Below, one piece after another: positions 21,001 through 30,000 of a stretch of DNA of 64,000 bases. How positions within the stretch are numbered: position 1 is the first letter of the stretch; each line of letters starts with the position of its first letter. Source of the stretch: Gemmatimonadota bacterium (GTDB taxonomy: Bacteria; Gemmatimonadota; Gemmatimonadetes; Gemmatimonadales; GWC2-71-9); contig JAZDCZ010000347.1 in the NCBI GenBank assembly GCA_036679605.1, positions 32,001 through 96,000 of the forward strand, given 5' to 3'. The position numbers are program-made.

Positions 21001-24000
21001 GCCGGACGTTCGCGCCCCCGGGGGTCGCTCTCATACCTGGTCCAGGCCTGTGCGTAGTGCTCCGCGTCGAGAAAGATCTGCTTCACATATGCAAATGCAC
21101 CCATTAGAGATGACGGATACCCGCGGTGTCCCCGCCCACCTCTCAAGTTCATTCGGAGTGCGACCGGTGTCTTCACCACCATGTCGTTGGGCCGCTCACC
21201 CGCCAGGTCGATCAGGGCAGCATGCCCCGGAAAGAACCCTCGCTCTGGAGCGGTCACAACCGACGTAAAGCCAGCTTGGCGCCACGTCTGGAGCTGCTCG
21301 TCATCCGGCTGCAGTTGGTCGGCCGCCATCACCCATGTAAAGGTGGCTGGTCGGTCAGCAGGACCACGCGAATAGGGAGAGTCCGCCGCCTGGCCGCCAC
21401 TACCTGCCCCTCCCCCACGCGGGGTAGCTGCACGTCTCACCGCAGGCCCGCTTCCACTCGGACGGGAAAGCCCAAGTGTGGTAAGCCCGTCTATCAAGCC
21501 GGGATAGACCGTAAGGCCGGACCCGTCGATGACCCATGCATCACTCGGGACATCGACCTTCGCTCCAATGGCGGTTATGACACCGTTCTTTAGTACGATC
21601 GTCCCGTTATCGATCGTGCGCCCCGATACTGGAACGAGTCGCGCGTTCTCGATCGCGTAGTGTGAATGGCGACCTGCCTGCTGTGCCACGGCCGGTATCG
21701 GCCCGAGCAGCATGACCGCGGCAACGCACATAATCGATCTCATGCGAAGGTGAAACATATCGCTACTCCAATCTCAAGTGGCGGCGGGATTTGCTGAACT
21801 AGAGTTTTCTATTGAGCTAAAGGTATCATCGGGACGGCAATGTGCGAGTGGCGAGATGCCGGGCGAACTCATTCGGCCTACTTTTCCCGCTTCCCGGCTA
21901 CTTGTTAATCTTCCCCCACGTATCCCTCAGACTCACAGTCCGGTTGAACACCAACGCACCGGCCTTGGAATCGACCGGATCGCTGATGAAATACCCCCGC
22001 CGCTCAAACTGATATCGCGTGCCCGGTGCGTCATTTGCGACGCTTGGCTCAATGCGACTGCCATTCAGGACCACACATGACTCGGGATTCAGATAATCAG
22101 TGAATTCCTTGCCATCGTCCGTGGCCTCCGGGTTGGGCACCGTGAAGAGTCTGTCGTACAGGCGCAGTTCGGCTGGCAGTGAGTGCGACGCGGACACCCA
22201 GTGGATGGTCCCCTTTACCTTCCGACCGTCCGGTGTGTTCCCGCCACGCGTCTCGGGGTCGTACGTGCAGTGTACCTCTACGACATTGCCCGCTTCGTCT
22301 TTCACGACGTCAGTGCACGTAACGAGATATCCGTAGCGCAAACGCACCTCCCGCCCTGGAGCTAGCCGGAAAAACTTTCGTGGTGGATCCTCCATGAAGT
22401 CGTCGCGTTCGATGAATATCTCGCGTGTGAATGGAATCCTGCGCGAGCCCTCTTTGGGTACGTCTCGCGGAAAATACGGCGCGTCCAGCTCCTCTGTCTT
22501 ACCCTCGGGATAGTTCGTGATCACTACCTTGAGCGGCTGCAACACACACAGCACACGCGGCACCTGCATGTTCAAGTCGTCACGGATCGCATGCTCCAGC
22601 TTGGCTATATCCACCCGGCTGTCGGTACGCGCAACACCGATGGTATGGCAGAAGTTGCGAATGGCCTCAGGTGTCACACCGCGTCTGCGCAAACCGGCGA
22701 TGGTGGGCATACGCGGATCGTCCCAGCCTGACACACGCTTGTCCTGCACCAACTTCAGCAGTTTGCGTTTGCTCAGGACGGTGTAGTCGAGATTGAGACG
22801 CGCGAACTCGGTTTGTTCCGGAGGACGGTCGAAGCCGACTGCCCTCACCAACCAGTCGTATGGTTCACGGTTGTCCTTGAACTCGATACTGCAAAGCGAA
22901 TGCGTGATACCCTCGATTGCGTCGGAGAGGCAGTGCGCAAAATCGTACAGCGGATAGAGACTCCACTCGTCGCCACGGCGGTAGTGACGGGCATGCCTTA
23001 TCCGTAGGAGCAATGGGTCGCGCATTACCATATTGGCATGACCCATGTCGATCTTCGCCCGCAACACATGGGAACCGTCCGGAAGCTCGCCGCCCCGCAT
23101 TGCCTCCAACAGGGCAAGATTCTCCTCGACTGACCGGTCACGATTAGGGCTGTTGAGTCCCGGCTCAGTTACTGTACCCCTATACTTGCGAATCTCCTCT
23201 TCATTCAGGTCATCGACGTACGCATTACCGTCCTTGACCAGCTTGATGGCAAAGTCGTAGAGTTTTTCGAAGTAGTCCGAGGCATGGTGTTCCCGATCGT
23301 ACCAATCGAACCCCAACCACCGTATGTCTTGCTTGATCGCATCCACATACATCACATCTTCTGTGTGCGGATTGGTGTCGTCGAATCGAAGATTGCACAC
23401 ACCTCCAAACTCAGCGGCGACTCCAAAGTTGAGGCATATTGACTTGGCGTGTCCAATATGCAGATAGCCATTGGGTTCTGGCGGAAACCGCGTCGTCACC
23501 GGCCTACCGTACTTGCCTGATTCTACGTCGCGAGTGATCATCGCGCGTATGAAATCCATGCCTCTCGTATCGACCATGCCTACTTCAGCACCTTTCCGAA
23601 GAACTCTTTCACCTCTGGCACACCACCCTGTAACACGACATAACCGTCGTGTGGTTCGCGATCAGTTATTTCACCGGCGACGGCGGTTGTCATCAACCGG
23701 CGCACCTCGTCTGGACTATCTGGATGTACTCCCAACGCCCAGCCGAGCTTGATATACGCAACTTCCGGCAGCATGTTCGCCAGCGGCACCACCCCTAACT
23801 GCAGTATCTCGCGTCCAGTCTCGTAAACGTGCATCTGCACAAACCCCCACAGAGTCTGCAACGTCATGTATATCTGCACACCTGCGTTCCGTGCTCTCTC
23901 AAGCGCTGGATACATCGCGCGATTTACGTGGCCCAAGCCCGTACCAGCTAATACTATTCCCTTATATCCGCAATCGATCAGCGCGTCGATCACATCAGCC

Positions 24001-27000: not shown

Positions 27001-30000
27001 CGGCATCGAAAGGCAGGCGGCCCCTCACGTTGACCCACGCACCCCCGCGTCGTACGTTTCGCCCCCACTAGAGAATACGACCCCTTGAAGAGAGATCCAT
27101 GACCCAAGTTCGTGTGCGGTTCGCACCATCGCCAACCGGCTTCTTGCATGTGGGTGGGGCCCGGACCGCCCTGTTCAACTGGCTCTACGCCAGAAAGACC
27201 GGCGGCAAGTTCCTCCTCAGGATAGAGGACACAGATCGGCAGCGATCATCAGACGAGCATGTCCAAGTAATTCTGCAGGGACTCGAGTGGCTGGGCCTGG
27301 ACGTGGACGAAGACATTGTCTTTCAAGGGGCGGGAATCGAACGTCATAGGCAACTCGCAGACCGCCTTCATGCCGAGGGCATGGCCTACGAGGATGATGG
27401 GGCGCTACGGTTCCGCATGCCCACCGACGAGATCGTGTGGGATGACGCAGTTTACGAGCGTATCAGCTTCAAGGGCTCGGACATAGAAGACTGGGTAATC
27501 CTACGGTCCAACAGGACACCTACCTATAACTTCACGGTAGTGGCCGACGACCTGGAGATGGGCATCACTCACGTAATGCGCGGTGACGACCATCTCTCTA
27601 ATACTCCAAAGCAGATCGCCGTATATCGAGCGCTGGGACACGAGCCGCCGGTGTTCGTGCACCTACCAATGATCCACGGTCCCGACGGCAAAAAGATGTC
27701 GAAGCGCCACGGCGCTACCGCAGTTGGTGAGTACCGTGCACTCGGCATCCTACCGCCCGCCATGCGAAACTTCCTAGCGCTGTTGGGCTGGAACCCAGGC
27801 GATGATAAAGAACTGTACTTCACGACCGAGGCGCTGATCGATGCGTTCTCGCTCGAACGCGTTCAGAAGAAGGCCGCGATCTTCGATATGACAAAGCTAG
27901 AGTGGATGAATGGACAGTACATGAGTCAGTCGCCGCCGGAGGACCTTCAACCGCTTATCGAGTCGGGATTGAAGGATCACGGAGTCGATAGTACCACTAT
28001 CGAACGCGCTCGCTTGCTGCGCGCGATCGAGGTGACCGCCGAGCGCGCCCGCACCACGATAGACCTGGCCAAACGCGTCGCGGTGCGGTTCAATCCCGAT
28101 CTTATCGTGCACAAAGACCCCAAGGCCCACAAGCTGATTACAAACGATCCTGACGGATTCCGGATGGCGCTCCGTGCCGCCGCCGAGCGGTTGACCGCAT
28201 TGAGCGATGACCGGTGGGAGCCCACAAAATTGGAGACCGAATTGCGAGCACTTGCGGAGGAGCTGGGATTGGGTGTCGGCAAGGTATTTCAGCCGATCCG
28301 CGTCGCTATTACCGGAGAGACCGTTTCCGAGCCGGTGAATTTTCTATTGGAAGTGGTTGGAAAAGAAGAGAGTCTCAGACGGATGGCGGCGGCACAGGAC
28401 TGGTGCTAGGTGGGGCTACTGTTGGGCCGCACTGGGATAGCTCCCGCATCTACAAGATCTGCCGTGTCACCATTTTCCTGCGGCACTGGGTACAGTGAAT
28501 TCGGCGCATCGCAACACCCTGCCTGACGATAGCAGGGCCCAGCATAAGATTACCCTCGCATTCCGGACACCAAACCCCCGCTCCGGGATGCGACATCATA
28601 CGCCGTACCAGAGACGCCGCCTCCAAAGAGTATATAGCCTGGGGCGGGCGTCTTCGCTCCGGCGAAGCGCGTCGATCCTGAACATTTCGGCGCTCGGCCA
28701 CCACAGCATGCTGAGCCGTGACTTCACCACCGCGTCGATCTAACGCATGGCGGCGGTCGTCTGAGGATCGGATGTCTCGAATAAACCTGCGCACTGCACG
28801 GCCCTGTAGTTCCTCGAGCAACTCATTCACTGGATGCAAGATTCACTCCTGTCGTGCCTGCATTTAGCTTGATCCCAAACCCGGTGCGATCGAACGTGGC
28901 TGCATATAGTAACGAAAATACAGGTCCTCCCAATAGCATGTGGCCTGGAGTTGAGATGTTGCCGAGATGAAAAGTGTACTGGAAGCGGCCAGGGCGCCAC
29001 CTATTGGAATTCCTGGATCGGTGTGTGCGTGACGACTGCAGCCATTCCCAGCCTCAGGCCAGGAACGGCGTTCTCAAGTACGCGCCTCTTCGGACTGGCT
29101 AGCCCAAAAGGCCGTGATCACGCAGAGATTGCCGTAGAGCAGGGCGGGCACGCCATAGGTAGTAGCCCATGCAGATCGCCGCAATGAGATTTCCGACTGC
29201 TACGTTGGCCCACGCCAATGCGGCCAGCAGAGGAGTGAACATCAGCGCAACTACTCCATTGAACCCGAATTCGAACACGATGAAGAACTCGATCAACAAC
29301 CACAGCGCACCAGGAGATTTCTCAGCCTCGGCGATCATGGCGGAAGCCACAGTGCCAACGAAGAGAAAGACGAGTACGTGCATTGCCGTATACATAGAAA
29401 CAGACTGGAAGCTGATGCTGACCGTTGCGGGGTCGCGAAGCCCAAAGAACACAGCCGACCCCAAAACAGCGGGGGTAAAAAACGGTCGGCCCGCTATCAC
29501 GTCGACAATGAGAAACCAACCCGCCACCGCGCCCGCCCCAATCAGGCCAGCGATGAACCCTTCCCGTACAATACGTTGGCGTGTCAACATGGGATCTCAG
29601 CTTTCTTCCGAGCGTAGAACCACCAATTCACAGCAAGGCAGGTCACATAGTAGCCGGCGAAGCCGTACAATGCATACTCGGGCGTGCCCGCCGATATCTG
29701 CCCACCGAAAATACGCGGAATCAGAAAGGCGCCATACGCCGCCACCGCCGATGTCCAGCCGAGCACGGGGCCGGCGAATTCCGGCTTGAAGATGATCGGG
29801 ATCATGCGGAAGGTCGACCCGTTACCGATACCGGTGGCTATGAATAGCACTAGGAATAGGAAGAAGAATGGCCACCAATACGCTTCCGGCGTCGCTGTGG
29901 CCCCTGCCGCCTTGACAAAGTAGGCTACGCCAAGCGCCGAAGCAATCATGATCACGGTATCCCAGTGTGTCACACGGGCACCACCGAGCTTGTCCGAAAG

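Follow-up and report, generated by a model that had tools for sequence, protein, structure and literature searches.

A GatDE amidotransferase of a bacterial branch in one operon with glutaminyl-tRNA synthetase in a Gemmatimonadota genome that has lost GatCAB

A glutamyl-tRNA(Gln) amidotransferase of the GatDE type, supposedly restricted to archaea, is encoded in a bacterial operon together with a glutaminyl-tRNA synthetase (GlnRS). On balance, we think it probable that this GatDE is a working enzyme, operating beside GlnRS on what an ancestrally non-discriminating glutamyl-tRNA synthetase (GluRS) produces, and that its presence made the amidotransferase GatCAB dispensable. The locus lies in a stretch of 64,000 nucleotides from a Gemmatimonadota bacterium, referred to here as the window, and would comprise all of the enzymes acting on tRNA(Gln) and tRNA(Glu), with GluRS on one strand and a translationally coupled GatE-GatD-GlnRS operon on the other. 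Its features are as follows.

21898..23577, minus strand: glnS, glutaminyl-tRNA synthetase, 559 aa (TIGR00440), the final gene of the operon
23580..24977, minus strand: gatD, asparaginase-type amidase subunit, 465 aa (TIGR02153), GTG start
24974..27028, minus strand: gatE, kinase/transamidase and tRNA-binding subunit, 684 aa for the ORF from the GTG at 27028 (NF003107, TIGR00134)
27029..27098, no strand: divergent gatE/gltX intergenic region, 70 nt, read from the sequence
27099..28409, plus strand: gltX, bacterial-type GluRS, 436 aa (TIGR00464), the sole GluRS of the genome

The four reading frames lie where the earlier note had placed them, all score above their NCBIfam cut-offs, and each of the four proteins is encoded once in the genome (tblastn). 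The operon genes follow one another head to tail in the order gatE, gatD, glnS, with gltX divergent. At the first junction the stop of gatE shares 4 nt with the start of gatD (GTGA), and at the second the gatD stop is separated from the glnS ATG by 2 nt. The true start of gatE is probably the ATG at 26977 (M18), as homologues align only from residues 19-24, and the gatE/gltX spacer would in that case be 121 nt. This spacer is presumably a shared promoter region; a consensus scan for sigma-70 sites found none in 27029..27098 and no excess over shuffles in 21500-28700. A search of the window found no Rfam family and no tRNA.

Both amidotransferase subunits are readily identified. GatD scores 490.8 bits against TIGR02153 (cut-off 324) and contains the Pfam domains GatD_N, Asparaginase and Asparaginase_C, while GatE scores 479.3 bits against NF003107 (cut-off 456) and 421.1 bits against TIGR00134 (cut-off 319.55) and contains GatB_N. 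The C-terminus of GatE matches Pfam GatB_Yqey at 23 bits, below the cut-off of 27; no other part of the operon resembles a YqeY tail. Residues 19-446 of GatD align with Pyrococcus abyssi GatD (1zq1_A) at 391.6 bits, with the GTGGTIAS, HGTDTM, RSSDRPSSDA and VRKMH stretches retained, and residues 47-673 of GatE align with residues 2-613 of the Methanothermobacter thermautotrophicus subunit (2d6f_C) at 294 bits and with 1zq1_C at 293 bits. A comparison of 32 bacterial-clade and 22 archaeal GatE rows found 73 positions at least 90% conserved in both sets, along with 11 clade-specific positions and an N-terminal extension in the bacterial clade. Relatives of GatD form more than 120 full-length clusters of 76-92% identity, and all of the named ones belong to Gemmatimonadota.

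In the GatE tree the bacterial sequences form a single clade (SH-aLRT 100) whose sister is a Heimdallarchaeota sequence. The clade spans Gemmatimonadota, Eisenbacteria, Krumholzibacteriota, Ignavibacteriota, Phycisphaerae, Myxococcota, Fidelibacterota and others, and GatDE here is a member of this broad bacterial clade and not a recent import from archaea. GatDE is called archaeal-only in two reviews (2021, 2022), and we found no paper that describes a large bacterial branch. One scan confirmed at least 597 bacterial carriers of GatD_N, and the gatE-gatD pair is maintained in hundreds of species of many phyla. Among 80 bacterial loci, 70 have the order gatE-gatD with both genes on one strand, and a contig end cuts 6 of the remaining 10. 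A sample of 401 genomes of the phylum includes 18 with a GatD over the cut-off, which reproduces the earlier count.

The GlnRS of the locus looks ordinary from its sequence, as the earlier note had allowed. It scores 732.7 bits against TIGR00440 (cut-off 425.8) and aligns over its full length with Escherichia coli GlnRS (1o0b_A) at 701 bits, with the HIGH, HSLC, EQxEF and VLSKRK stretches aligned. Its top model is the GlnRS/YqeY fusion NF011291, of which it matches only profile positions 13-558 of 769, and it carries no YqeY tail. GlnRS and archaeal GluRS share a common fold, and the protein also matches the gltX_arch model at 337 bits. The GluRS scores 443.7 bits against TIGR00464 (cut-off 289.95) in two stretches, the best being profile positions 143-464; a six-frame search of the genome likewise returned gltX pieces at positions 1-95 and 143-464. 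It is a short form, and its alignment to E. coli GluRS (8i9i_A) skips residues 98-131. The same short form is found in three relatives (G001, G004 and G035) that have gatB, lack GlnRS and have no GatD over the cut-off. In these genomes the short GluRS must charge tRNA(Gln), because gatB is present and GlnRS is absent, and a type that serves relatives with GatCAB but without GlnRS would be ancestrally non-discriminating. Counting against this reading, the Arg358 rule for GluRS mischarging is reported to be phylum-specific in an excerpt of PMC3927822.

The absence of gatB from the genome, which the earlier note had also described, was confirmed by profile search, the sole match being the GatE gene at 87.9 bits. 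The best gatA matches reach 196 and 171 bits (cut-off 481) and gatC has no match. The assembly (6,724,626 bp in 434 contigs) is 96.51% complete and 6.34% contaminated, and it had been supposed that the absence rests on an incomplete bin. The evidence points instead to deletion. In a genome of the same genus (G060), gatA-gatB lies at C20:28496-31266, flanked by the orthologue of a 306-aa ORF on one side and that of a PcrA/UvrD helicase gene on the other; on contig C65 of the present genome these two flanking genes are separated by 59 nt. Because this empty site sits on an intact 42.9-kb contig, the absence is a deletion rather than a gap in the bin. Compared with G109, which like G060 retains gatAB, the same 2.9 kb is missing in G176, G149, G112, G063 and G296, leaving 9 to 335 nt. 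Clean deletions at one syntenic site are thus seen in six genomes, the present one included, and GatCAB has truly been lost, repeatedly, in GatDE backgrounds.

The wider distribution qualifies what this loss means. Within the family of the window (f1), 40 genomes encode GlnRS. Where GatD is absent, 25 of 28 retain gatB (one as two fragments), and where GatD is present only 2 of 12 do (G060 and G109); some amidotransferase is found in 38 of the 40. It follows that an amidotransferase is maintained beside GlnRS and that GatDE can replace GatCAB. The earlier claim of replacement by an archaeal-type enzyme stands as regards the loss of GatCAB, although not as a simple takeover. In the phylum sample, some 100 genomes encode GlnRS but have neither gatB nor GatD over the cut-off, nearly all of them in families where GlnRS is general (70 of 70 genomes in family f7, 25 of 30 in f6). 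Among 58 genomes with GatDE, GlnRS is found in 51, gatB in 5 of the other 7, and neither in the draft bins G149 and G425. These 2 of 58 are the only genomes in which GatDE is the sole visible route to Gln-tRNA(Gln), so that it hardly ever stands alone. This counts against the main reading, since one could expect an amidotransferase of full competence to be the sole route somewhere, as it is in archaea. So does an order of Fidelibacterota in which GatDE is constant and which has GlnRS only in 5 genomes, gatB only in 3, both in 1 and neither in 1; there GlnRS rather than GatDE seems to take the place of GatCAB. Related genomes do not count as independent cases in any of these tallies, and most of the absences are absences from draft bins.

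All four tRNA(Gln) genes of the genome have the bacterial-type U1-A72 pair, in agreement with the earlier note. This also counts against the main reading, as archaeal GatDE is reported to recognize A1-U72 (excerpts of PMC2330236 and PMC9499178). An asparagine-related role is unlikely, since AsnRS occurs in 19 of 19 phylum members with GatDE (at 480 bits in the present one, where the earlier note had listed it together with GluRS) and the genome encodes two AsnB-type asparagine synthases (446 and 400 bits, cut-off 267). AsnRS was found in 27 of 30 carriers.

In the mechanism we propose, GatDE of the bacterial branch most likely retains the function of its family. The single short GluRS would supply Glu-tRNA(Gln), on which GatE would phosphorylate the glutamate using ATP and then amidate it with ammonia freed from glutamine or asparagine by the asparaginase-like GatD. 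The complex would have to accept a U1-A72 tRNA(Gln) instead of the archaeal A1-U72 type, and GlnRS would charge the same tRNA directly in parallel. With GlnRS, GatDE, AsnRS and two AsnB-type synthases in place, GatCAB would have been left without a task and deleted.

It is also conceivable, though unlikely, that gatED is a dispensable relic of an old transfer, with a GluRS that now discriminates and a GlnRS that makes all Gln-tRNA(Gln). The rarity of GatDE as a sole route and the many genomes of the phylum that live on GlnRS without an amidotransferase fit this idea, as do the frame-split gatD of G232 and G059 and the frame-split gatE of L105, which reflect either decay or assembly error. A relic would not be expected to keep its catalytic stretches and the 73 near-invariant GatE positions, to persist as a pair across many phyla, or to accompany gatB loss in a family where nearly all GlnRS genomes keep an amidotransferase. 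GatD is moreover better conserved than the neighboring synthetases, with 78% identity between the present genome and G206 compared with 70% for GlnRS and 68% for GluRS. Slightly less likely still is a putative GlnRS:GatDE complex, a transamidosome-like descendant of the archaeal assembly of non-discriminating GluRS (ND-GluRS) and GatDE (excerpt of PMC9499178), that would serve hand-off or repair of tRNA(Gln). Co-occurrence in 51 of 58 genomes and the coupled operon of the window are consistent with such a complex, and glnS adjoins gatED in four different arrangements in several phyla, which also speaks for the main reading; the likeness of fold appears here only as the gltX_arch match. The glnS-gatDE operon that the earlier note emphasized is indeed tight at this locus, but it is a minority arrangement, with glnS present within 6 of the 80 bacterial loci that were fetched (L064, L071, L075, L087, L111 and L116) and directly downstream of gatED in 3 of 18 phylum loci. 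The GlnRS of Gemmatimonadota forms a clade of its own, separate from that of other phyla, and therefore was not imported together with GatDE. Five GatDE genomes have gatB and no GlnRS, and GlnRS without a tail exists without GatDE (G039, G126 and others). YqeY-tailed GlnRS is common elsewhere in the phylum, as is glnS-gltX adjacency without gatED (G160, G039, G116 and G279).

We regard as improbable a switch of substrate, in which the enzymes of the bacterial clade would make asparagine on tRNA by amidating Asp-tRNA(Asn), or would act on another charged tRNA. On paper Gln-tRNA(Gln) never requires GatDE, the clade-specific GatE positions and N-terminal extension could mark such a change, and GatCAB is kept in Thermus, Deinococcus and Bdellovibrio despite AsnRS and GlnRS (excerpt of PMC4206432). 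The neighbors, however, are glnS and gltX rather than aspS and asnS, the core residues common to the Gln-specific archaeal enzymes are retained, and AsnRS and the AsnB-type synthases leave little need for it. A mixed or incomplete bin as the source of the operon or of the GatCAB absence is very improbable. The bin is large (6.7 Mb with 95 predicted tRNAs; relatives have 2-5 Mb) and contaminated, and contig C343 is a composition outlier whose tRNA(Gln) is absent from all 38 phylum relatives. Yet the four window genes are single-copy and are 75-87% identical to, and syntenic with, those of G060, and the gatAB site is there but empty, with the same deletion in five other genomes.

The closest known system is archaeal GatDE (M. 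thermautotrophicus 2D6F and P. abyssi 1ZQ1), which has the same two subunits, domain order and paired genes, and to which the locus aligns at full length (GatE 294 bits, GatD 392 bits) with the same asparaginase and kinase/transamidase stretches. It differs in that the present host is a bacterium with U1-A72 tRNA(Gln) and a bacterial-type GluRS plus GlnRS, the last encoded by no archaeon according to an excerpt of a 2022 review (PMC9499178), in that GatE belongs to a separate clade with 11 positions of its own, and in that GatDE of this type is almost never the sole route. Bacterial GatCAB, which appears to be the enzyme made dispensable by the locus, carries out the same reaction, and its GatB is a paralogue of GatE; it recognizes U1-A72 and rejects tRNA(Glu) by the D-loop (excerpt of PMC2330236). 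Unlike GatDE, it uses GatA of the amidase family plus GatC and also makes Asn-tRNA(Asn). Thermus and Deinococcus retain GatCAB for asparagine synthesis. In these genera and Bdellovibrio, GlnRS, AsnRS and GatCAB occur together (excerpts of PMC4206432 and PMC3927822), so that a direct synthetase coexists with a tRNA-dependent amidotransferase as it does here, although the amidotransferase encoded in the present genome is GatDE, whose genes are linked to glnS and gltX, and AsnB-type synthases are also present. The archaeal ND-GluRS:GatDE transamidosome (Rampias 2010, as described in an excerpt of PMC9499178) likewise joins GatDE to a Glx synthetase of class I that acts on tRNA(Gln); at the locus the operon partner is a GlnRS with the E. 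coli Gln-type stretches, and GluRS is bacterial. Finally, the Deinococcus-type GlnRS with a YqeY tail (NF011291) is the best model for the GlnRS of the locus at 940 bits, and differs from it in continuing beyond profile position 558 into the tail that the locus enzyme lacks.

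In the window, the glnS, gatD, gatE and gltX reading frames were found where the earlier note had claimed them, and each product scores over its curated NCBI equivalog cut-off and carries the expected Pfam domains:

21898-23577, minus strand: glnS, glutaminyl-tRNA synthetase (GlnRS)
23580-24977, minus strand: gatD, amidotransferase subunit GatD
24974-27028, minus strand: gatE, amidotransferase subunit GatE
27099-28409, plus strand: gltX, glutamyl-tRNA synthetase (GluRS)

Read from the sequence, the stop of gatE and the start of gatD share the overlap GTGA, and gatD and glnS are separated by 2 nt. 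As the alignments with homologues begin only at residues 19-24 of GatE, the true start of gatE is likely the ATG at 26977. GatD reaches 490.8 bits against the NCBIfam equivalog TIGR02153 (cut-off 324), and PF18195 (GatD_N) as well as the two asparaginase domains, PF00710 and PF17763, are each over cut-off. In the alignment with P. abyssi GatD (1zq1_A, 392 bits), the asparaginase stretches GTGGTIAS, HGTDTM and VRKMH are intact, and individual GatD residues presumably occupy the positions of the Thr-Lys-Asp triad. The GatD active site is described in the accessible part of a 2008 review as being of the asparaginase type, with a Thr nucleophile and this triad (PMC2330236). GatE scores 479.3 bits against NF003107 (cut-off 456) and 421.1 against TIGR00134 (cut-off 319.55). 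GatB models give only 125-151 bits on GatE, over residues 133-319, and its architecture is full-length and longer than that of GatB. Residues 47-673 align with residues 2-613 of M. thermautotrophicus GatE (2d6f_C, 294 bits), and P. abyssi GatE was also aligned with it. No tRNA and no Rfam family was found in the window. Directly downstream of glnS on the same strand (17740-21758) are two amidohydrolase-family genes of 432 and 907 aa, the latter with two amidohydrolase regions, that have no evident link to the operon.

GlnRS scores 732.7 bits against TIGR00440 (cut-off 425.8), while the archaeal GluRS model gives 337 bits, below its cut-off of 402. It aligns over its full length with E. coli GlnRS (1o0b_A, 701 bits), including the HIGH, HSLC, EQTEF and VLSKRK stretches, and we take Cys and Gln residues to form a Gln-type pocket. 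The caution of the earlier note that this GlnRS may be ordinary was well placed, as by its sequence it looks like an ordinary GlnRS without a YqeY tail, whereas many Gemmatimonadota GlnRS carry one. In the 401 Gemmatimonadota genomes of the phylum sample the enzyme has two forms: a Deinococcus-like form with the YqeY tail (profile matched to about 768/769), seen in families f4, f6, f7 and f8 and in parts of the window's family (f1), and a tail-less form that accounts for most of f1, f2, f3 and f5. The tail is responsible for many weak gatB matches in the sample (E 1e-19 to 1e-38).

The genome holds one copy each of GluRS, GlnRS, GatD and GatE, together with AsnRS and two AsnB-type asparagine synthases over cut-off. 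GluRS scores 443.7 bits against TIGR00464 (cut-off 289.95), with a gap of about 46 profile positions (96-142). It is a short form without some 35-46 residues of the catalytic domain, at the place aligned with residues 98-131 of E. coli GluRS, a segment that we assume to be the putative zinc-binding element. All 13 GatDE genomes of the window's family have the short form, as do G155 and nine genomes with a GatD match under the cut-off, including G070, which has a gatE fragment; it marks a subclade of the family whether GatDE is present or not (loci L144-L163). The rows of G155, G059 and G206 were left out of the GluRS alignment as wrong-frame ORFs. Three of these nine genomes (G001, G004, G035) combine short GluRS and gatB with no GlnRS, so that the short enzyme must charge tRNA(Gln) there, and because the window's GluRS has the same form, its ancestry is likely non-discriminating; this applies to ancestry only and not to present specificity. 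The Arg358 rule for GluRS specificity was set aside for the window's enzyme, as it is reportedly not transferable between phyla, according to the accessible part of a 2014 survey (PMC3927822). Among GatDE carriers outside the window's family, G049, G279, G167 and G403 have two full-length bacterial GluRS genes.

Profile searches of the genome agree with the earlier claim that it has no gatB, and gatA and gatC were likewise not found. This absence is not mere bin incompleteness, as the syntenic gatAB site is present and empty. In G060, of the same genus, gatA and gatB stand side by side, flanked on one side by the orthologue of a 306-aa ORF and on the other by that of a PcrA/UvrD-type helicase; the two flanking genes lie only 59 nt from each other in the window genome, on a 42.9-kb contig that is intact. 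The same 2.9 kb, with G109 as reference, is missing in G176, G149, G112, G063 and G296, leaving 9-335 nt between the flanks. The deletion happened several times, in line with the repeated displacement of GatCAB that had been proposed, since G060 and G109 keep gatAB while their congeners are without it, and G109 is closer in DNA identity to G149 and G176 (81-82%) than to G112 (70-71%). For the six further carriers G059, G206, G381, G232, G281 and G049, and for G116, the absence of gatB is a six-frame search result alone.

The window's family has GlnRS in 40 genomes (39 and G176). gatB is kept in 25 of the 28 without GatD, the exceptions being G110, G144 and G070, and in 2 of the 12 with GatD (G060 and G109). 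In these family counts and the carrier counts below, related genomes do not count as independent, draft bins make up the majority, and four unpublished genomes enter in denominators only. Some 100 further genomes in the phylum sample have neither gatB nor GatD, nearly all of them in families with general GlnRS.

Of the 58 GatDE carriers compared, the phylum sample supplied 19 (18 over the GatD cut-off and G232, with a split gene), other phyla 30, and the order of a Fidelibacterota carrier, in which GatD occurs in 10 of 41 genomes, another 9. Of these 58, 51 encode GlnRS. Five of the remaining seven have gatB, including the complete chromosomes G402 and G403; G149 and G425, both draft bins, have neither. 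Altogether 31 of the 58 lack gatB, of which 29 encode GlnRS. GatDE persists in the carriers of the Fidelibacterota order, with GlnRS and gatB mostly alternating beside it. In genus g27, GatDE as the only route did not hold up: G176 has a GlnRS fragment at a contig end, and G149 is treated as an assembly gap because its three congeners have GlnRS. Nor is there a clean loss of GatDE in the close, GatD-negative relative G070, as its gatE fragment lies at a contig end. The 120 GatD sequences that best match an Ignavibacteriaceae copy include no cultured carrier, all of them coming from metagenome bins.

The two subunit genes travel together, being adjacent in all 17 readable phylum loci, and gatD follows gatE in 70 of the best 80 bacterial loci, with 6 of the other 10 cut by contig ends. 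gatD is split over frames in G232 (L059) and G059 (L057), as is gatE in L105, by decay or assembly error. The window layout looks like a gatED pair placed inside a divergent glnS-gltX pair, an arrangement shared by G060, G206, L073 and L075. In G060, gatE and gatD are separated by an additional ORF of 254 aa on the strand of the operon (L045 8110-8874), which by eye resembles an Asp/Glu racemase-family protein and has no counterpart in the window. glnS and gltX are also adjacent without gatED, divergently in G160, convergently in G039, in tandem in G116 and G279, and outside the phylum in the Ignavibacteriales chromosome G404.

A recent archaeal import of GatDE is not borne out, given at least 597 confirmed genomes and a single clade of bacterial GatE. 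The best 80 of these at least 597 species-representative genomes all have bacterial titles and span Gemmatimonadota, Eisenbacteria, Krumholzibacteriota, Myxococcota, Ignavibacteriota, Chlorobiota, Phycisphaerae, Cloacimonadota, Fidelibacterota, Fibrobacterota and Acidobacteriota, some labels likely being wrong. The GatE tree (61 rows, GatB-rooted, quick IQ-TREE search with SH-aLRT support only) left out L089, L078, L087, L095 and L119 as wrong-frame ORFs, and 30 further rows were thinned. In it, a single clade with support 100 unites 32 rows, bacterial or unnamed intermediate ones, and the three intermediate rows that could be named are all bacterial. Matching the representatives to the 80 loci gave mostly 32-57% identity and yielded no names, and the majority of clusters are without one. 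The sister of this clade (support 98) is the representative of a cluster with a Heimdallarchaeota protein in it. At the base of the tree the clade shares a polytomy with three archaeal groups, whose members include Thorarchaeota, Thermoprotei, Thermoplasmatota, Methanofastidiosum and a DPANN sequence. Conservation of at least 90% in both domains is found at 73 GatE positions; 11 positions set the bacterial clade apart, four of which also occur in the Heimdall sequence. Inside the clade, Gemmatimonadota GatE joins that of Eisenbacteria, Krumholzibacteriota and Myxococcota. The GlnRS sequences of Gemmatimonadota group by themselves (support 98), separate from those of the three other phyla, and therefore GlnRS did not arrive together with GatDE.

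The bacterial type of tRNA(Gln) assumed earlier for this genome is confirmed by a U1-A72 first pair in 4 of 4 predicted tRNA(Gln) genes. A dedicated tRNA(Gln) for GatDE was considered and rejected: the Glu-like tRNA(Gln-UUG) on contig C346 is the native type, present in 39 of 42 genomes with or without GatDE. The second tRNA(Gln-UUG) type, on contig C343, is probably foreign, because it has no counterpart in 38 phylum relatives and the contig is a composition outlier; one weak match was to a Phycisphaerales genome. It is paired with a tRNA-Glu(CUC) at C343:115276-115747, on a 155-kb contig that stands out in tetranucleotide composition.

On these sequence data we lean towards a working bacterial GatDE that amidates Glu-tRNA(Gln) from GluRS beside direct charging by GlnRS. 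GluRS would make Glu-tRNA(Gln), GatDE would amidate it, and GlnRS would charge tRNA(Gln) directly in parallel; GatDE, GlnRS, AsnRS and AsnB would thus leave GatCAB without a task. Of the proposed replacement of GatCAB by GatDE, the part that stands is the deletion of GatCAB in carriers, but a plain replacement does not, as GatDE is almost never alone. The rivals weighed against the amidating GatDE were ballast, a changed substrate, a GlnRS:GatDE complex and a binning artefact. The near-constant company of GatDE leaves room for an auxiliary or partner-bound role. As for binning, the bin (6.72 Mb, 434 contigs, 96.5% complete, 6.3% contaminated) has 95 predicted tRNAs and, at 6.7 Mb, is roughly double its relatives in size; part of its contigs may therefore be foreign.

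A wider reading, which we hold to be rather unlikely, is that an old, monophyletic bacterial GatDE lineage, sister to Heimdallarchaeota GatE, has been re-tuned to U1-A72 tRNA(Gln). Rather than stand alone, GatDE would be obligately tied to a primary route, in most cases GlnRS. Its amidation might serve to repair Glu-tRNA(Gln), or GlnRS and GatDE might form a transamidosome that goes back to the archaeal GluRS:GatDE complex. If so, the rule that GluRS is discriminating where GlnRS is present and GatCAB absent would fail in carriers.

Independently of that reading, a single diverse bacterial GatDE clade, on bacterial tRNA(Gln) and next to GlnRS, offers a natural experiment on the switch of GatE from an A1-U72 to a U1-A72 substrate, and sister genomes before and after the deletion would catch a non-orthologous replacement of GatCAB in mid-course. 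The three enzymes and their tRNAs should pose no difficulty in expression or assay.

As the earlier note had said, homologues are visible in databases: the proteins are already called GatD and GatE in public annotation, and the novelty is the reading, not the sequences. No published report of GatDE in Bacteria was found in the literature searched, with subscription journals outside its scope. In its accessible text, a 2021 review has GatDE only in archaea (PMC8007984). In the accessible parts of two papers, GatDE serves as an archaeal signature, and its restriction to archaea underlies arguments on the amidotransferases of the last common ancestor and on why archaea never took up GlnRS (PMC9499178, PMC8007984). 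As far as its accessible part goes, the 2014 survey derives the specificity of GluRS solely from GlnRS and GatCAB, and its guess for Ignavibacterium album is that the GlnRS there may not function (PMC3927822); genome-based specificity calls that count GatCAB alone, as seen there, would be undermined.

The accessible part of the 2008 review is our source for tRNA identity elements and amide donor use (PMC2330236). The archaeal GatDE system is reported to act on tRNA(Gln) with an A1-U72 first pair, whereas all tRNA(Gln) genes of the window genome have U1-A72. Archaeal GatDE is also described as the sole route to Gln-tRNA(Gln), with no GlnRS beside it, while the window genome has GlnRS in the same operon.
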